Below, in pieces: positions 13,611 to 59,766 of a stretch of DNA of 64,000 nt. Under the pieces are notes generated by a model, which saw only the letters and a program-made list of their open reading frames with translations, ran no database searches and was not told the DNA's origin. Each line of letters starts with the position of its first letter. The first letter of the stretch is position 1. The stretch comes from Ostrea edulis. Its lineage: Eukaryota. A program made the position numbers and the translations under genes. The DNA lies in NCBI RefSeq assembly GCF_947568905.1, contig NC_079172.1, positions 30,070,001 to 30,134,000 of the forward strand, read 5' to 3'.

Positions 13611-14963
13611 CGAACAATAATACAGTATACATATATAAACAAATGATGATTACACATTATATTGACAACTGTATTACTTATGTTTTCACTTGTCTGAAAA
13701 CATTGAGTGTTAATGACAATTTTATAGATTTACATTTCCAATGATTTTGTCGTTGGTATCTTTACATGAACGCGCTGCGGGTGTAAACATGCGTATATAC
13801 GTATATATATTATACATATACAACTACATATACTTGATAAATATATAGCCTATTTAAGCGGCTAGTTATTCCGAGAGAAATGATTTGAGTAATGTGTGTT
13901 GCCCCAGACTGAGAGACAATCATCAGTTGTATACAAAGACATAATGTATGAATTGTGGAAAAGCTTCCGTGGTTGGATCGAATGAGGGCAGAGATTTTAA
14001 GCGACAGGGATTTACACACATATGGTCAATATATGAATATTGTACTGCAGCGAGTTATCTAAACATACTTCAAGGATTTTGTTTACGTGTTACTGTGTCT
14101 AGCGGTTGGTTCGATATGCAGAGATGGAAATCTTTTCTGATTTTTTCATATTTCTTCTGATGCGTACGGATCAACAATCGTCGCTTGCTACCCTTACGAA
14201 ATCCGGGATTCTATGACGTGAGTGAACGGAGACAATGGGCGTGGTTTGTGTCGATGACGGACTAACATGCATTTTGTTTTGTGTTGTAGTTATTTGAGAA
14301 CAACCTCTTTCTATATAACCAATAATAAATCGATATTGCATTTTGAAATAGATTGTAAATCTTCGCCAGAAACATGTAAAGGGGTACCTGTAAAGTGCGA
14401 AACGAAATCGAAACGAAACGAAATCTACCGAAACGAAACGAAACCTACCGAAACGAAACCCACCGAAACGAAACGAAACCTACCGAAATGAAACGAAACA
14501 GATTGTATAACCGAACTCTTTTAATTATCATAATTAAAAATGGTATCTTAGGCCCCTGTGAAAGTTACCACATATAACATTCGCCTCCCCTTTGATGTAG
14601 GCTTTCGGCTTGACTGTTACAAAGTTTTAAAAGTTGGAAAAGGGTGGGTGGGGGGGGGGGGGGGGTAAGCACAAAGTACATATCCGTAGTTGATTAAATA
14701 CCATGTACAATTAGTTTTGGATCCATAAATTTCAGAACCGAGGGTTACAGTCTCAGAGATCTGGAGAAACACATTATACGAGGGGTGGGATCGCCGACGT
14801 TGGATCCGCCTTTGGGCATAGATACATTGTTTGAAGAAGCTCGTGTCTGAAAAAATTGAAAGCAGGAAGAGCTCTTAACCTCTTATTTTATCTCTAACTG
14901 CTGAGGTGCGAGTACTTTCAATAATGGAAAAACTCTATACATTTGGGGTGTTGCTAAGACGGG

Positions 14964-15301
14964 AGTAGTATAACGCGTCCCGATAGGGAGTTCAACTGAG
15001 TGCACTTTTTATGCAAATGAGGTCAAGCAAGAGCGTTTTTGATTGGTCAAGCGGTGTCGGGGTCAACGGAGTGCACTAGGACGGGGTCAACCCCAGCAGG
15101 GGTTGTAGAGCGGGTGAATAGACTGGCCTATGGCCGCTGGTCTATGATGCGGTACTTTCGCTTTGAGTTCCTGGAATGAGTTCCTGCTATTTTTCTGAAA
15201 ATCCAGTGAAATCCTGTGTATTAAATCTAAAAGAATAACAGTGTATTAAATCTAAAAGAATAACACAAGGTTTTAAGTTGACATGTTTATTAAAGAACAA
15301 T
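14964..15301 (+). repeat. Left TIR (338 bp)
   Basis: Exact reverse complement of 34725-35062 as read by eye; starts AGTAGTA; contains a 25-bp tandem duplication at 15216-15265. Confidence 0.97.
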
Positions 15302-15407
15302 AGTACAATCCCCAGAGGTGGCACGGTCCCTAGTTTTACCCAGCGCTGTCTACAGGTAATATATATATAAAGCGGCGCGCGGTGCATTGGGTGTCACTTT
15401 CGACATC

Positions 15408-19405: not shown

Positions 19406-19933
19406 ATGACGGACTACGAATCACTACATAACCCGGGTACACCACGTTATGCTCTACTGTCAGATCGAGTAACGTCGTTTGAAAATGCTCCCGAACACTT
19501 GCAGAACCTATTACCTACCATTGCAGAAGCGGGATACTTTTACAAAGGGTACGGGGATAACACGTGCTGTTTTTATTGCAACTTTGGACTTCACCATTGG
19601 GGAGCTGTCGACAATCCTTGGATACAACATGCTTATTGGTATCCTCACTGTCCTTACCTGAAGTGTAATAAGGGTAAACAATGGGTACGACAAGCCTTCA
19701 ATGCCTATGCCCGCGCTAAAGACAGTGGTTGCGATTGGGAAGGCTTACCCTTAGACGCGGCAGGGAATCCAATGTGTACCCAGAAATGTCACATTTGTTT
19801 AGAACGAGACTTGAGAATTGCTTTTTTACCTTGTGGTCATTTATGTACTTGTGCTATATGTGCTACGGGACTGAAACAATGTCCTATTTGTAGACATAGT
19901 GTTGAGCAAGCTGTACGTATTTTTATTTGTTAA
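19406..19933 (+). CDS. iap: Inhibitor of apoptosis (single BIR + C-terminal RING), 175 aa
   Basis: BIR RVTSF..AEAGYFY..CFYC..LHHW..D.PW.QH...PHCPYL; RING CHIC..LPCGHLCTCAIC..CPICR. Confidence 0.95.
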   Translation: MTDYESLHNPGTPRYALLSDRVTSFENAPEHLQNLLPTIAEAGYFYKGYGDNTCCFYCNFGLHHWGAVDNPWIQHAYWYPHCPYLKCNKGKQWVRQAFNAYARAKDSGCDWEGLPLDAAGNPMCTQKCHICLERDLRIAFLPCGHLCTCAICATGLKQCPICRHSVEQAVRIFIC

Positions 19934-24547: not shown

Positions 24548-25543
24548 ATGGCTGGAGGAGAAGGGTTTTACATGACTCTGTTGAGTGATGGGTCGATGGA
24601 ATCGTTTCCGACGAATACGACTGCTCAATTTAAAACGTTATTGCCACACACCATGGACTTAACGGATGGAGCATGGGAAGTCGGATTGACCGAAATGATG
24701 TACTCGGCCAACTTACAAAACGTATCGGATAGCGAGGCTTATGTGGACGTTCTCATTCCAGATCCGTATACGCAACATGTCCAAGATCCCAACACTTATA
24801 AATGGGAAAGATTTAAGACAGAGAATATGGGCAAAGTCACGATGGCCAGGTGTGAGGTGGTGGTCCCCTGGGATCTGACGCCATGGTCCCATCTCTTTGC
24901 GGGAGGGGATAGTTTATTTCCCTTCGATATCATTCGCATTCACTTTCGACCCGGAGCTTATACACAACCTTTGGCGTTAATCAATGAAATCAACGCAGCC
25001 TTAAGGAGAACCCTGTGGAAAGTATGGACCGAGTTAGGGAATCCTAACGACGAGGGGAACAACCAGATCTTAGTGTATCACCCCGAGTACGATCGTGTCG
25101 AGTATCAGTTTAATGGGAAAGCACTGAGATCCACCCCCATGTGCATTCGTTTCCCTACGCCCTTAGCGTACAAGCTAGGTCTGGATAGTGACAAAATGAT
25201 CCTGGGCCAAGAAACCATGACGAAATGGATCAACGTGAATTACTTGGGGAACACGACCATGGATGTCTACGACAATCTGAAAGCCATGTATGTGTATTGT
25301 GACATTGTGGATCCTCAAGTGGTGGGCACCAACAAATTGAAATTATTGAGAGTCGTCCCCTGTACGGCTCAATACGACGATCGACAACAAGCCCGTTGGG
25401 AACCGATTCGAGCCGAATATTTGAAACTGAGTAAGAAATATTTCGATACCATTGAGGTACACATCATGAATTCTTTAGGGCGTCCTATGGGGTTTTTAAA
25501 TGGGCGCTCCCTAGTCAAACTTCATTTCCGCAAAGTGTATTGA
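24548..25543 (+). CDS. mCP: Minor capsid (penton) protein
   Basis: FYMTLLSD.S...PTNT..QF..LP...WEVGL; MYVYCDIVDPQVVG..LLRVV. Confidence 0.92.
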   Translation: MAGGEGFYMTLLSDGSMESFPTNTTAQFKTLLPHTMDLTDGAWEVGLTEMMYSANLQNVSDSEAYVDVLIPDPYTQHVQDPNTYKWERFKTENMGKVTMARCEVVVPWDLTPWSHLFAGGDSLFPFDIIRIHFRPGAYTQPLALINEINAALRRTLWKVWTELGNPNDEGNNQILVYHPEYDRVEYQFNGKALRSTPMCIRFPTPLAYKLGLDSDKMILGQETMTKWINVNYLGNTTMDVYDNLKAMYVYCDIVDPQVVGTNKLKLLRVVPCTAQYDDRQQARWEPIRAEYLKLSKKYFDTIEVHIMNSLGRPMGFLNGRSLVKLHFRKVY

Positions 25544-27900: not shown

Positions 27901-28398
27901 ATGGATACTCAGCAATTGAGAGATGTTTTACAACGAGATTTAGGACCGGCGTTTGCCGGTGTGTATCCTCGAGATGTCATACCTGAGCTGTTACCTCATC
28001 ACAAAGCCATCGTGGTGAATACAGACCCTCACGATCGCCCTGGAGCGCATTGGGTCTGTTTGTATTTGAGTAGCCCTACCGTCGAATATTTTGATTCTTA
28101 CGGATTACCTCCCAGCCATAAAGACATCCAAGACTTTATTCAACGCCACGGAGAGACTTGGATTCATAACACCCATTGTTATCAAGATTTGAATACGGAT
28201 GTCTGTGGACAATACTGTGTGTATTTTTTACATCAACGCCATCGCCATAGAAGCACCGTACGAGAATGGTTACTTCCCTGGAAAGGCACGGCCTTACAAC
28301 GCGATCGTTTTGTGGCGGATTGGTTTAAAGAGACCTTCCGTAAACCGAGAACCCATCAAGGACAAACTTGTCAATGTCAAAGACTGAATGTATTGTAA
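27901..28398 (+). CDS. Adenain-like cysteine maturation protease
   Basis: NTD..PGAHWV, YFDSYG, Q..TDVCGQYC catalytic motifs. Confidence 0.95.
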   Translation: MDTQQLRDVLQRDLGPAFAGVYPRDVIPELLPHHKAIVVNTDPHDRPGAHWVCLYLSSPTVEYFDSYGLPPSHKDIQDFIQRHGETWIHNTHCYQDLNTDVCGQYCVYFLHQRHRHRSTVREWLLPWKGTALQRDRFVADWFKETFRKPRTHQGQTCQCQRLNVL

Positions 28399-28500
28399 AC
28401 TATGTTATTGTTATTGTTCATAGTTGGAGTTTAATAAAACGTTGGAAAAAAAAAATTTCTTGTCATTGTAATCAACCATGTCTTTTCAAAAAGAATGGGT

Positions 28501-28516
28501 AGCCCTGAAAAGGGCT
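28501..28516 (-). terminator. Histone-mRNA-type 3' stem-loop AGCCCT-TTTC-AGGGCT followed by ACCCA and HDE-like GAAAAGAC
   Basis: Minus strand AAAAC AGCCCTTTTCAGGGCT ACCCA TTCTTTTT GAAAAGAC, 94 nt after the stop of 28611-28907. Confidence 0.8.
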
Positions 28517-28610
28517 GTTTTCTTTCTCTCTCTGTTCTTGGTCTTTTCTCTTCTTCTTCTCTCTTCTCCTTCTTCTCCTTCTCTTCTTCTTCTTTTCTTC
28601 TCGGTCCCCC

Positions 28611-28907
28611 TCACTGTCTGTTCTTCTTCTTCTTTCTTCTCTTCTTTTTCTGCTCCTCCGGGGGTTGCTCGTGGTCAAACACAAAAACGGGCAACCACCC
28701 GTGTTTAAAAAACAATCTCCCCGGAGGCCGCTGTACCACTTCTAACTCTGCGTCCCAGTTTTCTTCTGGCGGGGGCAGATCCTGGCTCATGGGCGGTGGG
28801 GGAAGAGCCTCCCGTGAGGCCGGCGGGGTAATCTCTTGCTCCCAATCCTCCTCCCATTTGATACAATAATCATTCACCGTAGGGTCTGGTCCTACTCTGC
28901 GGCTCAT
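28611..28907 (-). CDS. Unknown acidic/Pro-rich 98-aa protein with a basic NLS-like tail
   Basis: ATG-initiated, shared promoter motif upstream, stem-loop downstream. Confidence 0.65.
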   Translation of the reverse strand: MSRRVGPDPTVNDYCIKWEEDWEQEITPPASREALPPPPMSQDLPPPEENWDAELEVVQRPPGRLFFKHGWLPVFVFDHEQPPEEQKKKRRKKKKNRQ

Positions 28908-28973
28908 GGTTCTGGTTCCTTTAAAAAATCGGAATGCCCGATTTTGACGTTGCGCTCGGTTTAAAAAGGCGAG

Positions 28974-29034
28974 AGCGCGGACGTCCTCGAAAACATCCCC
29001 TACCTCAGATGGCTGACGTCATGTTGATGACTCA
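28974..29034. promoter_or_regulatory. Divergent promoter: 26-bp motif copy 1, CRE TGACGTCA (29014-29021), AP-1 TGACTCA (29028-29034)
   Basis: AGCGCGGACGTCCTCGAAAACATCCC matches 30705-30730 at 25/26. Confidence 0.65.
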
Positions 29035-29082
29035 TCAAAAAACACTATATACATAGGTCACTTGTTACCATTTTTCTCAATC

Positions 29083-29484
29083 ATGTCGTTTGAACGGTAC
29101 GCGGATGATGAGAATGATGTACTAGTGTGTGGGTATTGCCGAGGACCTTGGAGCACTTGTGGCTGTTTTCATTATAAAAAAGAAAACATCCTGGCCAAAC
29201 AGAAGTGGATAGAGAGATTGGCAGAGCTGACGTATTATCCCTTTGTCTATAAATGTTGTGGTCACACTAGAGAACCCTGGCTAGAGTGTAAGTGTCCGCA
29301 ACATTGTACCATCACCCCTGAAGAAGAAATAGTGCATAAGGACTGTACCTGTGAGATCTGTCAGGAGTTTAGAGAGCGCTGGACTCATAGAAAGTTTGAT
29401 CCCCGGCTGTTTCAACATTGTCCTTACAGTCAAGAACCCCGGTCAACGTGTACCTGTGAGACCTGTCAACCAGCATGTCGGTGA
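29083..29484 (+). CDS. Cys-rich putative metal-binding protein (133 aa)
   Basis: CGYC, CGC, CC, CKC, CTCEIC, CTCETC clusters; TATA ~29046. Confidence 0.7.
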   Translation: MSFERYADDENDVLVCGYCRGPWSTCGCFHYKKENILAKQKWIERLAELTYYPFVYKCCGHTREPWLECKCPQHCTITPEEEIVHKDCTCEICQEFRERWTHRKFDPRLFQHCPYSQEPRSTCTCETCQPACR

Positions 29485-29663
29485 CGGATCTACGAGGAGA
29501 TGTATTATCTCTACCTTGGGTGGATGCTATTGTACAACAATGTAACTGTTTAACGGTGAAACCTCATGGATTAGCCGGAGGCAATTGGACTCATTATAGA
29601 CAATGGATTTGTGACTTTGCTTATCAGTATCATAAACATGTGTACATTGTCAAGAAAATGTAA
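29475..29663 (+). pseudogene. Internally deleted macrodomain (62 aa)
   Basis: N-terminal GDVL..DAIVQQCNC..PHGLA fused directly to C-terminal GLAGGNW..Y..I..FA..VYIV. Confidence 0.7.
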
Positions 29664-29775
29664 CTTTATTATAGCTTTATTCTAGCTATTACTTGTGTTA
29701 ATAAAAACTTTTTTAAAACAAACTTGTGTGTTTCTTGATTTTTGCCATAAAAAGTGTCTTTTCAAAAAAGTTGGT

Positions 29776-29791
29776 GGCCCTGAAAAGGGCC
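29776..29791 (-). terminator. Canonical histone-mRNA 3' stem-loop GGCCCT-TTTC-AGGGCC with CCAAAC/ACCAA flanks and HDE-like GAAAAGAC
   Basis: Minus strand CCAAAC GGCCCTTTTCAGGGCC ACCAA CTTTTTT GAAAAGAC, 22 nt after the stop of 29814-30602. Confidence 0.9.
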
Positions 29792-29813
29792 GTTTGGTCC
29801 TAAGGACCGACTT

Positions 29814-30704: not shown

Positions 30705-30780
30705 AGCGCGGACCTCCTCGAAAACATCCCTCGCTTCGGAGACGAAGCCAAGATGGTGGCCGTCAAAATGGCGGATTTGT
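30705..30780. promoter_or_regulatory. 26-bp motif copy 2 plus YY1-like AAGATGGTGGCC / AAAATGGCGG, upstream of a TATA-like box (~30692-30698) for the RING gene
   Basis: AGCGCGGACCTCCTCGAAAACATCCC at 30705-30730. Confidence 0.6.
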
Positions 30781-31165: not shown

Positions 31166-31384
31166 TCAAATACATAACTCCCACACACAACACCAATTCA
31201 CATGTCTTTTTAAAATAGGGTCCAACATTTTTTCCATTTCTCGAATCCTGCGTTGAAATCGATAGCGATCAGCGGCTACAGTCATCCAGATACTTGTCCG
31301 GTCTTCTTCGGGTAACAGATGCACTTCATTTTGATCCAGATTAAAAGTCACACGTTTAACTTGACGTACATCTCTCGAAGACAT
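31166..31384 (-). CDS. DP71L/ICP34.5/GADD34-like PP1-eIF2alpha adaptor (72 aa)
   Basis: RVxF motif KRVTF plus R..W...AADRYRFQRRI..ME..L..IL; AATAAA 15 nt after the stop. Confidence 0.88.
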   Translation of the reverse strand: MSSRDVRQVKRVTFNLDQNEVHLLPEEDRTSIWMTVAADRYRFQRRIREMEKMLDPILKRHVNWCCVWELCI

Positions 31385-31653
31385 CGTAGTCTGATTTTCT
31401 CGATTTCTGCTCTGTCTGTGGGTCGAATTCGTTTCAATTCCTGGCCCATTAAATGAATCAGTACTAAGGCTTGCGGGGTGATCCGGTTCTCGATCAAATA
31501 CTGACAGAGACATGGATAGTCCTTTAAGCTGATGGGAAATAATTCTTCTCGCATATAGTGTAACACAAATTCAAACTGCCCAGAATGAATGTCTGTGAGA
31601 TAATCCAATACATAAACTATCGCTTTCTCTGTGATGTGGTCACTGCTGGCCAT
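31348..31653 (-). CDS. Helical multigene-family member A (probable divergent Bcl-2 fold), 101 aa
   Basis: FPISLKDY..LVLIHLMGQELKR.P..EIE; DNA around the start nearly identical to member B. Confidence 0.65.
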   Translation of the reverse strand: MASSDHITEKAIVYVLDYLTDIHSGQFEFVLHYMREELFPISLKDYPCLCQYLIENRITPQALVLIHLMGQELKRIRPTDRAEIEKIRLRCLREMYVKLNV

Positions 31654-31987
31654 CCTCCGGGAATAAATGAAATGAATTAAGTTCTTCACACTTTATGTAT
31701 ACTTCTCGAAGCCAGTCCTTGGTGATACTTTCAATCTCGGCGGTTTTTTCAGGCATGCGTTTCTTGAATTCCTCCCCCGCGACATAAATTAACATCAACC
31801 CCGCATCGTTATAGAGATTGATGTACACATGGTTCCGTAGATCTGTATATTCGTCCAGAGTCATTGGAAACACCCCCGCTATCAGATAATTTTTAACAGC
31901 TTGAAACACCGTATCGTCTTGCATTTTCTCCACCCATTCTAATGCATGGTTATGCGCTTTTTCTGCGATGTTGTCACTGCTGGCCAT
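31640..31987 (-). CDS. Helical multigene-family member B (probable divergent Bcl-2 fold), 115 aa
   Basis: FPMTLDEY..NDAGLMLIYVAGEEFKKRMPEK..EIE..WLREVY. Confidence 0.65.
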   Translation of the reverse strand: MASSDNIAEKAHNHALEWVEKMQDDTVFQAVKNYLIAGVFPMTLDEYTDLRNHVYINLYNDAGLMLIYVAGEEFKKRMPEKTAEIESITKDWLREVYIKCEELNSFHLFPEDGQQ

Positions 31988-32015
31988 CCTCCAGGAATAA
32001 AGGAAAAGAAAACGG

Positions 32016-32369
32016 TTAGGTTTTTTTATACACCTTTTCCAGCCAGTGATCGGTAATCGCTACAATCGCCCCAGTCTTCTCAGGTTCCCGTCGTCTAAAT
32101 TCTTGGTCCATGTTATAAATCATGATCAATCCAGACTCTCTGTTCAGGTTGTCGGCTATATGCTTGCAAACGCTGGAATATTCATATAAGGTCATAGGAA
32201 ATTCCCAAAAGATCAACAACTTCATGGCGAATTTATATCTCAACGGCTGTTTTTCTTTCCAGTCCTTGATACACTGTAATGCAGCGCTACGAGCGTTGTT
32301 CACCGATTCTTTGTAGTCCTCGAAATGCTGTAATACAGCGGTAAGAACGTTGTTGGTCAATTCAGCCAT
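32016..32369 (-). CDS. Helical multigene-family member C (probable divergent Bcl-2 fold), 117 aa
   Basis: FPMTLYEY..NRESGLIMIYNMDQEFRRREPEK..WLEKVY. Confidence 0.65.
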   Translation of the reverse strand: MAELTNNVLTAVLQHFEDYKESVNNARSAALQCIKDWKEKQPLRYKFAMKLLIFWEFPMTLYEYSSVCKHIADNLNRESGLIMIYNMDQEFRRREPEKTGAIVAITDHWLEKVYKKT

Positions 32370-32406
32370 GATGATCAAAATGAAAAAATTCCAAAACGTT
32401 CTTGTT

Positions 32407-32739
32407 TTATAACAGGCCAGCCATTCCTTTCATACGAATCAGTTCCACGAATCCTTTTTGTAGACAATCGCGTAAGATCCGATCAATGTCACTCATCTGG
32501 TCTGGAAGATTCTGTTTCAATTCCTCAGCATACAAATAAATCATGAGTAAACGTCCCGTATTGGTATTCTCCGCTAATGAATCAGCAATCCGTTGAAAAC
32601 TATGTACATTTCTGACCTCCGGTGACATCTGTTGTACAAATTGACGAGCATTTTGAATGTGAGGATTATGTAAGGCCACGTTCATACATTGTAGTACATA
32701 ACTATATCCATTTATTCTCGTAGTAGCACTGCCGCCCAT
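32407..32739 (-). CDS. Helical multigene-family member D, the most Bcl-2-like; possible N-myristoylation (MGGSAT), 110 aa
   Basis: BH1-like SFQRIADSL..TNTGRLLMIYLYAEEL; BH2-like LQKGFVELI. Confidence 0.65.
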   Translation of the reverse strand: MGGSATTRINGYSYVLQCMNVALHNPHIQNARQFVQQMSPEVRNVHSFQRIADSLAENTNTGRLLMIYLYAEELKQNLPDQMSDIDRILRDCLQKGFVELIRMKGMAGLL

Positions 32740-32878: not shown

Positions 32879-33385
32879 ATGGATACACGGAGAATTTTAA
32901 GAGCGAGACGCCGCCGCCAGGGAATACAACCAGTAGAGAATTTAACCATAGTAGAAGATTATGTAGACGAGATGGAGATCTGGGATAATTTAGTACAGAG
33001 ATGTCGCCATCGATTACGCTGGGGCCGATCTAAAAATTGGTGTTTTGACTATGTATTGCGGTCACATGAAACAGTGGAGGATATTTACCTGCGTTTAAGT
33101 GACATGTACCTGAAAAATTCCCCCCTCATACAGTACATGATTTACCAGTTTTACACGTTATTGAACGGCACTCAAAAAGTATCGGGATTTATTCGACTGG
33201 AGAAACCACGTTACCGGAGAAGTGTATGGGTATTGTTTTGGGATGCACACTGGATGTGGGAAACCGTCGAAGAGATACGTTTCCCCGGGAGAAGAGCTCG
33301 ACAATTAGTACAACACATTATATCCGAAGATCATGACTTACACGTGTATATAGAAGAACCTGCGTATGAAGCCGGCCATTTTTAA
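32879..33385 (+). CDS. Inactivated CRESS-DNA-virus Rep-like HUH endonuclease domain (168 aa)
   Basis: Motif I-like RSKNWCF; YMIYQ..NGTQKVSGFIRLEKP..AHW aligns by eye with circovirus-type YxIxxxE..GTPHLQGF..AHxE; catalytic His and Tyr absent. Confidence 0.65.
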   Translation: MDTRRILRARRRRQGIQPVENLTIVEDYVDEMEIWDNLVQRCRHRLRWGRSKNWCFDYVLRSHETVEDIYLRLSDMYLKNSPLIQYMIYQFYTLLNGTQKVSGFIRLEKPRYRRSVWVLFWDAHWMWETVEEIRFPGRRARQLVQHIISEDHDLHVYIEEPAYEAGHF

Positions 33386-33404: not shown

Positions 33405-33420
33405 AGCCCTTTTTAGGGCT
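33405..33420 (+). terminator. Third histone-type stem-loop AGCCCT-TTTT-AGGGCT
   Basis: 19 nt after the stop of 32879-33385; flanks GCAC/ACTTT; no clear HDE; AATAAA also at 33387-33392. Confidence 0.6.
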
Positions 33421-33705: not shown

Positions 33706-34623
33706 ATGGCTCAGAAACAACTAGAATTTGTGGACAAAGCTCAGAAGAAAATAGATCAGCTGGTACAGAAGGAGATGGGGCCACAGAAAGACTACATTGA
33801 ACTGAAGAAAGCTAAGAGTGACGATCAGAAGACTGAACTGGGGAAGACCTCGAACTTCTTGCTCACGTCTCCAGACTACGTTGCTCAAAGAAGAAGAGAA
33901 GAGAAGAAGATGGCCCAGACCTCGAACCAGACCACGAGCTTCAATCTCACGCCTTCAGACCACGTTGCTCGACAAGTGAAGATGGCCCAGACCTCGGATT
34001 ACCTCCCTAGCCAGAATCCGACAGACCCGGGATTAGGCTTCTATTTTCCCGATTCACAGGACGCTACGGGACTGGAGATGGGCTTATACGATAAACCCCC
34101 CTTCGGCGGAGAAGATTCCCCCATGAGCAGGACCGATTTCGCCATCATTACCACGACACTAGACGGGATCGTTAACCGCATTAATGTGCTGAGTAATGAG
34201 ATTGGAAATCATACCACAATCCTACTGAAGAAGCTGGAAGACCTGACTTCTAAAAAACCTAGGAAGGAATACACTCCAGATTACACTGCTAACCCGTGCT
34301 ACACGTGTGGAGAAACAGGACATTGGTCGCCGGATTGCCCACAGAAAACAGATTATCCGCAGACCAGTAAGAAATCGTGGTCGGCAGATTCTCAACAGAC
34401 CAGCAAGAAAACCAAACAAAAGGATCCTTGCTTCAAATGCGGAAAAATAGGACACTGGATTAGTGAGTGTCCAGAAGAACAAGCGGAGATAGATGCGATG
34501 ATTGGACCCGTACCTGGCTCAAAACCACCTGTGAAGAGAGAATACACACCGTTAGAGATGTGGAATCCACCCGCACCTACTGAAGAACGGCCAAAAAAGA
34601 AGAAGAAACTCAGCAGAAAGTAA
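33706..34623 (+). CDS. Double CCHC zinc-knuckle protein with coiled coil and NLS (305 aa)
   Basis: CYTCGETGHWSPDC and CFKCGKIGHWISEC; PKKKKK; TATAAAAG at 33647; AATAAA 34735 inside the right TIR. Confidence 0.85.
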   Translation: MAQKQLEFVDKAQKKIDQLVQKEMGPQKDYIELKKAKSDDQKTELGKTSNFLLTSPDYVAQRRREEKKMAQTSNQTTSFNLTPSDHVARQVKMAQTSDYLPSQNPTDPGLGFYFPDSQDATGLEMGLYDKPPFGGEDSPMSRTDFAIITTTLDGIVNRINVLSNEIGNHTTILLKKLEDLTSKKPRKEYTPDYTANPCYTCGETGHWSPDCPQKTDYPQTSKKSWSADSQQTSKKTKQKDPCFKCGKIGHWISECPEEQAEIDAMIGPVPGSKPPVKREYTPLEMWNPPAPTEERPKKKKKLSRK

Positions 34624-34724
34624 TGGACTGTGCTTGAACTGTTATACTTATTGAACTGTTTTTTATGCTTATTGAACTGTTTTTATGTTTATTGAATTGT
34701 TTTGCATTGTTCTATGCTTGTACC

Positions 34725-35062
34725 ATTGTTCTTTAATAAACATGTCAACTTAAAACCTTGTGTTATTCTTTTAGATTTAATACACTGTTATTCTTTTAGA
34801 TTTAATACACAGGATTTCACTGGATTTTCAGAAAAATAGCAGGAACTCATTCCAGGAACTCAAAGCGAAAGTACCGCATCATAGACCAGCGGCCATAGGC
34901 CAGTCTATTCACCCGCTCTACAACCCCTGCTGGGGTTGACCCCGTCCTAGTGCACTCCGTTGACCCCGACACCGCTTGACCAATCAAAAACGCTCTTGCT
35001 TGACCTCATTTGCATAAAAAGTGCACTCAGTTGAACTCCCTATCGGGACGCGTTATACTACT
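34725..35062 (-). repeat. Right TIR (338 bp)
   Basis: Ends ...CGTTATACTACT followed by TSD GACGGG. Confidence 0.97.
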
Positions 35063-36017
35063 GACGGGGAATTGAAAACGGGACGGAAAACGGAATTTTT
35101 TTAATGCAATAATATTAGGAGGAGGTCGGCATTTTGTAAACTGAAAAGGCTTAAGAACGAGGTAATTTTAAGCAGAAATCACAAAGAGAACGGGAGGGCA
35201 TATTCAGAATCCACCGTTTGATATACTACATACAAATACACAATATCCACATGTATACATATATTTGTCTTCAGAGCAAAAAATACTGAAACATGTATTT
35301 ATGTCCAAAGGCGGATCCAACGCCGACGACCCCATCCCTCGTTTAGTGTGTTTCCCCAGACCTCTGACCTGTGAGACTGTAACCTTCCGTTCTGAAATTG
35401 ATGATATTTATGTACTTTGTGCTTACCACCCCCCCCCCCCTTTCCAACTTTTAAAACTTTGTATCAGTCAAGCCGAAAGCCTACATCAAAAGGGAGGCGA
35501 ATTTTATTTATATGTGTAAACTTTAACAAGGGCCTAAGATACCATTTTTAATTATTATAAATAAAAGAGTTCAATTATACAATCTGTTTCGTTTCGTTTC
35601 GGTAGGTTTCGTTTCGTTTCGGTGGGTTTCGTTTCGTTTAGGTAGATTTCGTTTCGTTTCGGTAGATTTCGTTTCGTTTTGGTAGATTTCGTTTCGTTTC
35701 GTTTCGATTTCGTTTCGCACTTTACAGGTACCCCATGTAAAGTGGCATTATCAGCAAATAAATCGATGTTACAGTATATGGCCATAAATGAGTCATGATT
35801 TAATTTTTTTTTCGCTATAAAAATATGTAATGAGCTATCAATAACGTTGCAATAGGTTAAAAAAAATTTCAATGACATATGAAATGAGGACTCACTTATA
35901 CGGCCATATACTGTAGAGTTTTAAATGCATGGTGGATCATTACTGTAACACAGAAATAAAAGCGGTCATAGTATAGACCCTTGCGGAACTCCCGTTGCGA
36001 CTGACTGGTATTGGTTA

Positions 36018-56000: not shown

Positions 56001-59000
56001 GGCGAGGTTCACTGATTTGACTGCTGATGAAATACAAAATTAATCAGAAGAAACGCTGACCAGAAACATGAAAATGTAATCATTAATTGGATATTGGGTT
56101 ATGTTTTCTTTTAAACTAGTGGATACGGTAAAAGTTCAAAGTCAACAAACCATGTGCACATATACATGTAGTAAAAACAAGCAAAATAAATGAAGGCAGT
56201 TATAGACCATGTCCTCAGACAACAGCTGTTTTGTTTGACCATCGAACGGATCTGAGGGCCAGTCAAACAATACAGCTGTTGTCCTTGAACCCAGTCAATA
56301 TCTTCTCAATATCAAAAAAATCTGAAAATTGAAAGGGGTCTTCCTCTGCCTAATCCAAGTATTATGTATAAAGTTTATGAAAATCTTTCCAAGAAATCAA
56401 GTTATTGTGTGCCATATGGTGGGGCCCTAATAATGTGATTAATAACACCATTTTATGGTGGGCCCTAATAATGTGATTAATAACACCATTTTAATGATCA
56501 TGAGCACCTTCAATATTTGTGTTTTCCATTATGATAGATGGCAGCAGTATTTGAACGATGACAATGCGAGTGGAACAGATAAGCAGCCAGTTTGCTATTT
56601 CTCAAATGTGAAACGATGCCCAAGTGATCTGGAAATTTGTCCCTCGCCAGCATCATATACCCTCAGCAGAAATCGAAACAGCAATACAACAGCAGGAGCT
56701 GCTCCTACAGTATCTGCAGCTAATGTCCACAGAATGTCCAATCTCTATCTGTCACAAAACTTACAAAATAGTCAGCAGAGTGCAACTTCGTCATGCTGGA
56801 CAAAGTCAACTTCCATGTCTGAATCTCATAATGACACATTGTTACAACCAACTTCATTGTCTGGAAATCCTACCATAAAACAACAGCAAACAGTAGCCAT
56901 AAAAGGGCTTCACGATACTGGAATTAACAATTCACAGGTACCACAGGAAAGTGATATAGAAATGACTCCAGTGCAAACACTGACAGGAAATCTTATTCCT
57001 ACCACCCCTCAAAACTTCGGAGACTATGCCCTCACCATTAATCCCATGAATTATGCAGATGACATTGTTTACCAGTGTGATCCAGCTTCCAATGTCAATG
57101 TGCCAAAGGATCAAGAGAAAACAGAAAGCATGGAATTTGGTTCCATTATGTCTAATGCAGTTAAGGCTCTGCATGGAGACCTGGATGTATACAATGCCGC
57201 TCCTGAACAGTATCAGTTATCTGAATACAACGAATCTGTGCCATACATGAATCCACAATTAGATGTTCCACCACTGTATGTGCAGCCCTCCGGATCAAAT
57301 GAGAACTGCCACATTTTCAAATATCAAGAGGAAAACAACAGACCCATTAAGAAGCGGTCGTACAAAATTATTGAAGGTCTCCTGGAGAATGAAGTGTGGA
57401 GGGCAAAGTTTTATCAAAACAAGTCAGCCTCAACGACCACCCAGTTACAGAATGTTGCAGCCTCAACGACCACCCAGTTACAGAATGTTACAGCCTCAAC
57501 GACCACCCGGTTACAGAATGTTGCAGCCTCAACGACCACCCAGTTACAGAATGTTACAGCCTCAACGACCACCCAGTTACAGAATGTTGCAGCCCCAACG
57601 ACCACTCAGTTACAGAATGTTACAGCCTCAACGACCACCCAGTTACAGAATGTTGCAGCCTCAACGACCACTCAGTTACAGAATGTTGCAGCCTCAACGA
57701 CCACTCAGTTACAGAATATTACAGCTTCAACACCTATACAGTTACAGAATGTTACTGCCTCAACGACCACTCAGTTACAGAACATTGCAGCCTCAATGAC
57801 CACTCAGTTACAGAGTGATACTGCCTCAACGACCACTCAGTTACAGAATATGGCAGCCTCAACAACCACTCTGTTACAAAACGATACAACCTCAACACCC
57901 ATTCCATTACAGAATGTTACAGCCTCAACATTCACTCCATTACAGAATGTTACAACTTCAACTCCATTACAGAATGTTACAGCCTCATTCTCAATGCCAT
58001 TACAGAATGTTACAGCCTCAACACCCACTCCATTACAGAAAGTTTCAGCCTCATTCTCCACGCCATTACAGAATGTTACAGCCTCATTCTCCACTCCATT
58101 ACAGAATGTTACAGCCTCAACACCCACTCCATTACAGAATGTTTCAGCCTCATTCTCAATGCCATTAAAGAATGTTACAGCCTCATTTGCCATGCCATTA
58201 CAGAATGTTACAGCCTCATTTGCCATGCCATTACAGAATGTTACAGCTTCAACATCCACTCCATTACAGAATGTTACAGCCTCATTCTCCACACCATTAC
58301 AGAATGTTACAGCCTCAACACCCACTCCATTACAGAATGTTACAGCCTCAACATTCACTCCGTTACAGAATGTTACAACTTCAACTCCATTACAGAATGT
58401 TATAGCCTCATTCTCCACACCATTACAGAATGTTACAGCCTCAACACCCACTCCATTACAGAATGTTTCAGCCTCATTCTCCATGCCATTACAGAATGTT
58501 ACAGCCTCATTCTCCACTCCATTACAGAATGTTACAGCCTCAACATCCACTCCATTACATAATGTTGCAGCCTCAACACCCATTCCATTACATAATGTTG
58601 CAGCCTCAACACCCACTCCATTACAGAATGTTACAGCCTCATTCTCCACTCCATTACAGTATGTTACAGCCTCAATCTCCACTCCATTACAGAATGTTAC
58701 AGCCTCAACACCCACTCCATTACAGAATGTTACAGCCTCATTCTCCACTCCATTACAGTATTTTACAGCCTCAACATCCACGCCATTACAGAATATTAGA
58801 GCCTCAACACCCATTCCGTTAGCGAATGTTACAAATGATTGTGTATCACAAGACAGGGTACAGATTCACAGTGAAGAAAGAGAAAACGAAGCAAGTTGTC
58901 ACACAGCAGTAAGGGACAATCATATAAGCGAGAAACATGATGACAGTAATGTTACTACAAATATTCTGCAAAAGGTCGACTCTGATGTAGCACACATGTC

Positions 59001-59766
59001 AGCTAGTCAAGCTGGGCCTTTGAATGAAACTCAAGAAACTGGTGAATACGTAGAACTGCTCCTAGGATTAAAAGCAGATAATGTGAATTCTATAGAACAA
59101 AATCAAAGCGAGACAACAGTCATCTACGACACCGAGTACAGCAAAGATAGTGGAAGTTTAAATGAAGAGGTTGCGGAACTAGAAGTCAAAAGAACAGAAA
59201 ACTTTGAGATTCTGGTGGAGACTAAACGTAACGACCATAATGGATCTAATTTGCAGTATGACATGGAGATTGGACCTGCAGAAAAATCAGGAGTTGACGA
59301 TGAAGAGGATTCAAGTAAAAAATATTCTGAGGTAGAAATTGTCATTGATAATGCAGAGGAGCTGTCTGTGACATCTTGTGAAGAAAAATATTACAGCAGT
59401 AATTTATCAGAAGCTGTGTCAGAAACCACAGATGATGGGGGTCCTAGAGAAGTTAAGGAAGAAGTTGTGAAAGACAATGTCTCTGAATCTTTACCTAATC
59501 AGGGAGAGAGCCTCAATTCAAAGAATATGGTGATTTATAGTAACATGCAACAAAATCCCAAAGATGATCATGAACAACTAAAATGCTCCAACAAGTTCGA
59601 ATGTACAGGAGATCATTCAAATTTGGAGTCAGGAGATGCCCCCAGAAGTGTAAAGGACATAGCTCTGGAAACAAAAAACAAATCCACTAGATCTATGAAA
59701 TCTGTAAATAAGAAGAGGCATCAATACAATTCACCGGTCCGTGCATCTAAAAGACATAAGCAATGA
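42156..59766 (+). CDS. SoxH: SoxH/Sox30-like HMG-box transcription factor, 8 exons: 42156-42591, 43735-43989, 50930-51436, 51550-51723, 51888-52140, 54269-54402, 54709-54826, 56538-59766 (5106 nt, 1701 aa)
   Basis: HMG VKRPMNAFMLWAR..NAEIS..LG..W..HRKDFPG|WVYQP resembles Sox30; all introns GT-AG with compatible phases (1,1,1,1,2,1,2). Confidence 0.85.
45059..45433. mobile_element. 375-bp near-perfect palindromic MITE, CACAGG termini, 8-bp TSD GATTTATG
   Basis: Arms mirror each other over most of the length; TSD at 45051-45058 and 45434-45441. Confidence 0.88.
47493..47620. mobile_element. 128-bp palindromic MITE, CACAGG termini, 8-bp TSD ATGAAAAC
   Basis: TSD at 47485-47492 and 47621-47628. 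Confidence 0.88.
48095..49393 (+). mobile_element. Helentron-type non-autonomous element with satellite units
   Basis: 5' TTTTTAGGTCACCTGAATAAACTCAGGTGACC; 3' CAGGTGACCGATAAGGCC..CTCTTGTT. Confidence 0.7.
49454..49550. mobile_element. MITE-like relic related to 10101 and 40209 (no TSD seen)
   Basis: CAGTCTGATTAAAACCAGA..TCTGGTTTTAATCAAACTG. Confidence 0.55.
50638..50846 (+). mobile_element. 5'-truncated 3' end of the Penelope-like retroelement
   Basis: Matches 10800-11005. Confidence 0.75.
52888..54010. mobile_element. Helentron-type element(s), degenerate
   Basis: TTTTTTAGCTCACCTGAGCTAAAAGCTCAAGTG start; satellite-like interior. Confidence 0.55.
57423..58830 (+). repeat. Coding 33-bp (11-aa) tandem repeat, ~42 units, in the last SoxH exon
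   Basis: ASTTTQLQNVA/T block followed by AS(F/T)(S/P)TPLQNVT block. Confidence 0.92.

Follow-up and report, generated by a model that had tools for sequence, protein, structure and literature searches.

Two accessory genes of a Maverick/Polinton in the oyster genome are enclosed between sequences that match the regulatory signals of the host's own histone genes, with an H1-type promoter block in front of each gene and a histone stem-loop followed by the host histone downstream element (HDE) behind it. What the DNA shows directly is that the signal sequences are present, how closely they match host histone signals, where they lie and that they have been retained. We consider it probable that an ancestor of this Maverick captured histone regulatory DNA and that the element runs non-histone accessory genes as SLBP/U7-processed, cell-cycle-coupled units. 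Judged by their sequence, these are not histone genes, but they appear to be built to work like them.

The window (the whole stretch of 64,000 nucleotides that was analyzed) contains one complete Maverick (Table 1). As in other Mavericks/Polintons, inverted repeats and a 6-bp duplication enclose genes for PolB, integrase, ATPase, protease and a double jelly-roll capsid; the difference lies in the accessory genes that are framed by histone promoter and 3′ signals. Pfam searches identified a protein-primed family B polymerase (PF03175, E = 2.5e-57), a retroviral-type integrase (rve, E = 1.3e-10, plus a chromodomain), a packaging ATPase (Pox_A32, above the cut-off) and a protease (Peptidase_C5, E = 2.9e-4, 21.0 bits against a cut-off of 21.3). 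The model of a 467 amino acid protein (pLDDT 77.8) matches double jelly-roll capsid structures, the best being the Sputnik, PBCV-1 and mavirus capsids (E = 5e-16 and up), and by this predicted fold the protein is the major capsid protein. The 331 amino acid ORF at 24548-25543 had no Pfam match; from its position alone, our guess is a minor capsid (penton) protein. Of 270 candidate capsid matches in the host genome 91 were scored, 78 of them being 97-100% identical and 13 being 87-88% identical. The family is young and present in high copy number. Proteins almost identical to those of the Maverick bear the label Ostrea edulis, which makes the host an oyster.

Table 1. The Maverick, its histone-type signals and neighboring genes, with positions counted from the first nucleotide of the window.
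Feature	Position	Strand	Description
6-bp target-site duplication	14958-14963 and 35063-35068		
Complete Maverick/Polinton	14964-35062	.	20,099 nt; inverted repeats, target-site duplication, core genes
Inverted repeats	14964-15308 and 34718-35062		345 nt, 100% identical
Adenovirus-type protease gene	27901-28398	+	Converges on 98-aa gene; AATAAA at 28433
HDE 2, GAAAAGAC	28480-28487	-	13 nt past stem of hairpin 2
Histone stem-loop 2	28501-28516	-	15/16 identical to host H1 hairpin; then ACCCA to 28496
98-aa gene	28611-28907	-	Belongs to no known family; Trp-acidic words recur, C-terminal tail is basic
Host-H1-type promoter block, 98-aa gene	28974-28998	-	23/25 to host H1; just before TATA box
133-aa cysteine-rich ORF	29083-29484	+	Converges on RING-like gene; own AATAAA at 29700
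Two AATAAA signals (starts)	29670-29681	-	Past hairpin 1; may give an alternative, polyadenylated form
Third short block, AGAAAC	29730-29735	-	28 nt after HDE start; common to many host histone ends
HDE 1, GAAAAGAC	29756-29763	-	12 nt past stem of hairpin 1
Predicted cut sites	29771 (hairpin 1), 28496 (hairpin 2)	-	5 nt after stem
Histone stem-loop 1	29776-29791	-	16 nt; identical to host H2B hairpin; then ACCAA (to 29771)
RING-like gene, 262 aa	29814-30602	-	Proline-rich; C-terminal RING-like 8-cysteine finger
Host-H1-type promoter block, RING-like gene	30705-30729	-	24/25 to host H1; ~8 nt before TATA box
168-aa ORF	32879-33385	+	No known family; upstream of hairpin 3; weak Viral_Rep match, unconfirmed
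Histone stem-loop 3	33405-33420	+	Identical to host H1 16-mer; AATAAA just upstream

Several other ORFs were recorded in the window. Among the accessory genes of the Maverick are an IAP gene (BIR plus RING, 19406-19933), a gene for a PP1-binding GADD34-like protein (31166-31513), four small ORFs in a row (31348-32739), the last with a weak Bcl-2 match, and a gene for a 305 amino acid protein with two CCHC zinc knuckles (33706-34623) that adjoins the right inverted repeat. Outside the element, a host ORF (56455-59766) contains 39 copies of a 33-nt tandem repeat that encode a Thr/Ser-rich protein stretch.

Three histone-type hairpins were found in the Maverick, each after a stop codon and on the sense strand, at distances of 22 nt (hairpin 1, RING-like gene), 94 nt (hairpin 2, 98-aa gene) and 19 nt (hairpin 3, 168-aa ORF) from the stop. 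The earlier note on this DNA had placed hairpins 1 and 2 correctly, together with the 22-nt distance and the GAAAAGAC element 12-13 nt past the stems, and had missed hairpin 3. The match to the Rfam Histone3 model (RF00032) that it anticipated was recovered, with 40.2 bits for hairpin 1 (above the 34-bit cut-off) and 32 bits for hairpin 2 (below it, E = 8.5e-6); hairpin 3 scored 22.3 bits. A covariance model built from 11 host histone 3′ ends gave 61.8 bits for hairpin 1 and 50.1 bits for hairpin 2, and the best of the seven listed matches other than the three hairpins reached 13.3 bits. Both MFE and centroid folds of hairpins 1 and 2 have a 6-bp stem and a 4-nt loop, with folding-energy z-scores of -2.98 and -1.19, respectively, so that hairpin 2 is not unusual by energy alone. 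Across the 20,099 nt of the Maverick, three strict hairpins were observed against a mean of 0.047 and a maximum of 2 in 300 Markov simulations. The hairpin observation is real, beyond chance and larger than first described. As for the covariation claimed between hairpins, the basal stem pair does differ, being G-C in hairpin 1, as in host H2B, and A-U in hairpins 2 and 3, as in host H1; however, since these are the forms of different host genes, the difference need not have arisen within the Maverick.

The sequence GAAAAGA lies 12-13 nt past the stem in 30 of the 30 host histone hairpins sampled and 12-14 nt past the stem in 47 of the 53 hairpins from 35 Maverick stretches, both sets having been picked via the Rfam model. 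Five of the six Maverick hairpins without it are of the hairpin 3 type, and the sixth carries a single change; hairpin 3 of the window lacks the sequence. The element downstream of hairpins 1 and 2, described earlier as HDE-like, is identical to the host's own histone HDE. When 75 candidates from a genome search with RF00032 were scored, the best 30 loci comprised 27 Maverick-like loci and three H2B genes; twenty further host stretches cover all five histone types plus an H2A.X-like gene. A third short block, AGAAAY, is found in 9 of 17 distinct host ends and 22 of 28 distinct Maverick ends, 27-33 nt downstream of the HDE start, over a background of 2%; we know of no description of a conserved block beyond the HDE of histone ends. 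In the host histone ends L031-L038 it lies 28-33 nt after the HDE start in H1, H2B, H3 and H4, and not in H2A. Two lone hairpins in the host genome (L048:4749 and L050:4977) carry another purine element, CAGAAAGA, and no ORF was found upstream of them.

An SLBP domain is encoded in the host genome. The Rfam search of the host genome for a U7 snRNA gene came back blank, with its controls likewise silent, and three pattern searches stayed at or near control level; none of the 11 stretches read among 12 candidates was convincing. Pairing between the Maverick HDE and U7 is assumed from the likeness to host histone genes.

The second line of evidence comes from the other end of the genes. Allowing as many as three mismatches, the 25-nt H1-type promoter block has two matches in the 64-kb window and none in 100 shuffles. 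Its core is found within 150 nt upstream of just two of the 23 Maverick ORFs, those of the RING-like and 98-aa proteins; in the window it is absent before the other 21, including the 168-aa gene of hairpin 3. The host H2B promoter has a shorter, related core of the same block. Genome-wide, the exact host 23-mer of the block occurs 17 times (13 in histone clusters, one at a lone H1 gene and three in a Maverick-type promoter context). Because the block never served to pick loci, it lends independent support to the reading of these signals as a histone frame, and its presence before exactly these two genes, which the earlier note had not predicted, strengthens that note's interpretation. A GGTCCG core is known as the HINFP site. 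An H4-box in H1.0 promoters is mentioned in a legend of one review (PMC5414669). We found no confirmation of either name for oysters in the literature, and the block is left unnamed here.

No histone family was detected by Pfam among the Maverick proteins, and the idea that the 98-aa protein is a decayed H1 was rejected, as it gave no alignment to host H1. Since the Maverick genes encode no histone, they are not replication-dependent histone genes, and the claim is limited to their working like them. The label "RING" given earlier to the 262-aa protein is weak by Pfam (E = 0.0012 for the domain alone, below the cut-off), but is favored by comparison of the family profile with solved structures, where 22 of 23 matches fall on the C-terminal cysteine stretch (best E = 0.01) and bear the names TRIM, BRCA1, CBL, Not4 or RING proteins. 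The RING-like protein is a probable ubiquitin ligase, and it is plausible that this ligase and the 98-aa protein are early regulators. A relationship of the 168-aa ORF to CRESS Rep proteins was considered and set aside (Pfam E = 0.015 and 0.0087, below the cut-off; 0.1% in profile comparison).

In several respects the two cassettes resemble replication-dependent histone genes: a 16-nt hairpin with AC-rich flanks, a host-identical HDE at host spacing, a short uninterrupted ORF as read from the DNA, the host H1 promoter block and a TATA box. They differ in that the Maverick encodes the RING-like protein and two orphan proteins without likeness to host H1, and in that its cassettes are dispersed in mobile elements rather than gathered in histone clusters.

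The signals are also conserved in related Mavericks, as the earlier note had anticipated. Among 29 copies picked by their capsid (C1, C2 and part of C3, scored against the first 100 of 375 genome matches listed), 28 carry one or more exact stem-loops with HDE on the expected strand, no farther than 5 kb away, and 25 carry two; the signal is present in four of the five copies that belong to the 87-88% family. Most copies are 97-100% identical in the capsid, so that retention among them says little about selection. Between families, the RING-like proteins are 31-41% identical (one pair, 88%) and the 98-aa proteins 26-47% (one pair, 75%), with capsids at 86-88%. In loci mostly found through the hairpin itself, the stem-loop is kept at 13-16 of 16 positions, the HDE at 7 of 7 (an identity partly built into the comparison script) and the spacer at 5-7 of 10, and the flanks are near background in most pairs. 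Hairpin 3 is kept in a family whose 168-aa-type protein is 37% identical. At one locus (L007), a 41%-identical RING-like protein precedes a nearly identical 3′ region; Maverick families swap modules, and flanks can stay preserved without selection.

Some copies keep more of a histone gene than its known signals. Beyond the HDE, the ends of a second family match a host H2B end at 24-26 of 32 nt, with 0-2 of 200 shuffles as good, which points to capture from host histone genes. The 32 nt past the HDE of the window copy are at chance level against H2B (21-22 of 32; shuffles, 19.7-19.8), with hairpin and HDE intact. The simplest reading of these sequences is that histone DNA was captured from the host and then decayed outside the working signals. 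What the earlier note called a disguise of transcripts as histone mRNAs is better read as captured host regulatory DNA than as convergent mimicry.

Captured DNA could also be an inert passenger, gained by recombination and spread by an expanding family, with no effect on the genes or with the genes silent. The youth and high copy number of the family would agree with this, as would the survival of H2B sequence past the HDE in the second family, and other oyster repeats share these ends (47 of the first 100 matches listed lie outside the 29 capsid-scored copies, as at L148, L149 and L042). We nevertheless consider it very unlikely, as the window copy is at chance level past the HDE with its hairpin and HDE intact, and as three unrelated ORFs, in lineages whose capsids are about 50% apart, have kept both the promoter block and the 3′ signal, in the correct strand and position every time.

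Beyond this genome, we kept 80 of 370 metagenome loci encoding capsid relatives, most of them short. Hairpins above the Rfam cut-off follow non-histone frames in L061 (capsid 47% identical) and L128 (34%), the frame upstream of the latter being interrupted by an in-frame stop, and L110 (53%) has a weaker hairpin plus the oyster GAAAAGA, again after a non-histone frame. The L061 hairpin is accompanied by a different purine element, CAAGAAAGA. In L110 the loop contains a G and the top of the stem a mismatch, and some sister-family ends have C-rich 5′ flanks, unlike the host pattern; by sequence, both features may weaken SLBP binding. Of the three occurrences of a GTCCG-plus-TATA pattern in 83 outside loci, two immediately precede the hairpin genes of L061 and L110. 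Strict-pattern hairpins were found in three of the 80 metagenome loci against 0.017 expected (60 simulations, with the pattern fixed after the matches had been seen). The hairpin of L097 has a canonical stem, but matches neither the Rfam nor the host model and has no clear upstream gene, and was counted as weak. L078 (8430-8470), a sister of L110, has the same gene with the same promoter block, again in the GTCCG-TATA arrangement. Its contig stops within the first hairpin arm, which suggests that assemblies break at this point and hide further cases.

In a quick capsid tree, from which 8 of 86 rows with short overlap were left out, the window family, L110, L078 and L061 share one branch with 99% support; on short contigs, "no hairpin" does not equal absence. 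L128 and L097 fall elsewhere, which hints at more than one capture. No hairpin was found in three longer outside loci, L150-L152, two of which belong to the same capsid clade. The trait is patchy: not all Mavericks have it, and in the oyster genome it also occurs outside them. The Maverick of L152 (13790-21287) lies beside a tandem U1, U2 and 5S array. Its contig had been assigned to a bacterial genome bin, which thus contains eukaryotic DNA; the Mavericks of L150 and L151 were also binned as bacterial.

Histone-type ends were also seen on sequences other than Mavericks. A dispersed oyster repeat with a GDSL/SGNH-hydrolase-like ORF (Pfam E = 1.5e-9; L148:590-1213 and L149:658-1212, on C1) has a histone stem-loop and the host HDE ~18 nt after the ORF, and roughly a dozen of the first 100 matches listed share its end sequence. 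A second repeat (L042:3900-4620), without similarity to the window Maverick, carries a 132 amino acid orphan ORF with TATA box, stem-loop and HDE. Another hairpin lies upstream in inverted orientation, and similar ends cluster at C1:47.36-47.39 Mb. On a 2.3-kb circular-Rep-type viral contig, a canonical histone hairpin (L142:1223-1258, minus strand) lies on the capsid strand ~88 nt past the capsid stop, with AATAAA upstream of it. IMG/VR yielded no relatives of the Maverick by capsid or polymerase and no match to the strict hairpin pattern. A looser pattern gave seven loci, of which one was retained and six were set aside (two phage-like and four of one RNA-virus-like genome, with hairpins on the opposite strand or inside genes).

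A broader proposal, which we advance tentatively and with somewhat less than even confidence, is that a clade of animal Mavericks routinely routes its own genes via the histone promoter, SLBP and U7, retuning the HDE to the U7 of each host, and that other Mavericks, other repeats and one or more small circular DNA viruses do so independently.

For the window Maverick, the SLBP, U7, poly(A)-free and S-phase steps of the capture reading are drawn by analogy with the known pathway. The ancestor of the lineage would have taken up an H1-type promoter block along with H1-type and H2B-type 3′ ends. The host factor that drives the H1 and H2B genes would start transcription of the two Maverick genes, SLBP would bind the hairpins, U7 snRNA would pair with GAAAAGA, and CPSF73 would cut 5 nt past the stem, at the sites given in Table 1. 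For histone pre-mRNA, the accessible text of a 2026 survey (10.64898/2026.10.14.759114) describes how CPSF73, together with SLBP and U7, cuts five nucleotides past the stem. The resulting messages would lack poly(A), be translated via SLBP and be destroyed once DNA synthesis stops, so that the RING-like ligase and the 98-aa protein would be made only in S-phase, cleavage-stage or gonial cells and could serve as early switches tying Maverick activity to dividing (germ-line) cells. Counting against this explanation, the available part of an SLBP CLIP study in human cells reports no targets beyond histone genes (PMC4604434).

The messages might instead be mostly polyadenylated downstream, the hairpin being kept for SLBP-dependent storage, translation or decay and not for U7 cleavage. 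H2A.X-type genes can be polyadenylated downstream of the hairpin, and potential signals are at hand in the Maverick, with AATAAA 133 and 144 nt past the RING-like stop and ATTAAA 176 nt past the 98-aa stop; hairpin 3, which lacks an HDE but has AATAAA, is nevertheless retained. In Drosophila, maternal histone mRNAs that depend on SLBP and are polyadenylated have been reported (PMC11997800). What makes this alternative unlikely is that the families retain the HDE, needed only for U7 cleavage, precisely spaced at hairpins 1 and 2.

Hairpins 1 and 2 each lie where two genes converge, ~60-70 nt from the opposing poly(A) signal, and under the capture reading a sharp cut would halt each message just that far short of the opposing gene's signal. 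The same arrangement could mean that the hairpins are compact terminators between converging genes, avoiding double-stranded RNA, or a handle for U7 silencing, with no cell-cycle purpose; U7 is reported, in the accessible part of one study, to repress HERV1/LTR12 through HDE-like motifs (10.1101/2023.08.25.554787). This appears quite unlikely, as it does not account for the H1 promoter block that these two genes also carry, and the hairpin genes of L061 and L110 run in the same direction as the capsid genes. The interpretation offered by the earlier note is partly supported, all of its sequence-level predictions having been borne out.

We found no description of Maverick/Polinton genes with histone promoter and 3′ signals in the literature searched, its scope lying outside Repbase entries and subscription journals. 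Davila Lopez and Samuelsson (2008) may have discussed stem-loops in protist non-histone genes. The available text of PMC3256202 contained nothing on stem-loops. Human cytomegalovirus offers a likeness as a DNA virus that needs host SLBP; in the parts of that account available (PMC9169081), however, the mechanism is stated to be unknown, SLBP loss brings no global change in viral transcripts and no viral stem-loop is mentioned. Virus-encoded histones, such as bracovirus H4 and the giant-virus doublets, are similar in being histone material taken from or shared with hosts (PMC12819152, PMC13525598, as far as these sources were accessible), but they carry the histone protein, whereas the Maverick keeps the regulatory frame around a non-histone protein. 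The 2026 survey, in its accessible text, reports that neither SLBP nor processing factors turned up in the genomes of large DNA viruses, and it sought stem-loops behind histone genes (10.64898/2026.10.14.759114). HERV1/LTR12 elements likewise are mobile elements with U7-complementary motifs; unlike the Maverick, they have no stem-loop in what the source makes available, and U7 acts there as a host brake on transcription (10.1101/2023.08.25.554787).

If a virus-like element of high copy number supplied natural substrates other than histone messages, this would break the rule on what the histone message pathway acts upon, and such genes would be missed by poly(A)-selected RNA-seq. To our knowledge, little has been established about the transcription program of Mavericks. 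If the capture reading is true, it would give a first hint of the time and the cell types in which Mavericks become active, and would present a virus-like element that senses the cell cycle through both ends of a histone gene. Should the broader proposal also hold, integrated viruses would be exploiting a host circuit, the histone message pathway, to switch on in cells that divide or belong to the germ line, and histone genes would face competition for SLBP, U7 and histone-locus factors from hundreds of dispersed cassettes of the histone type.
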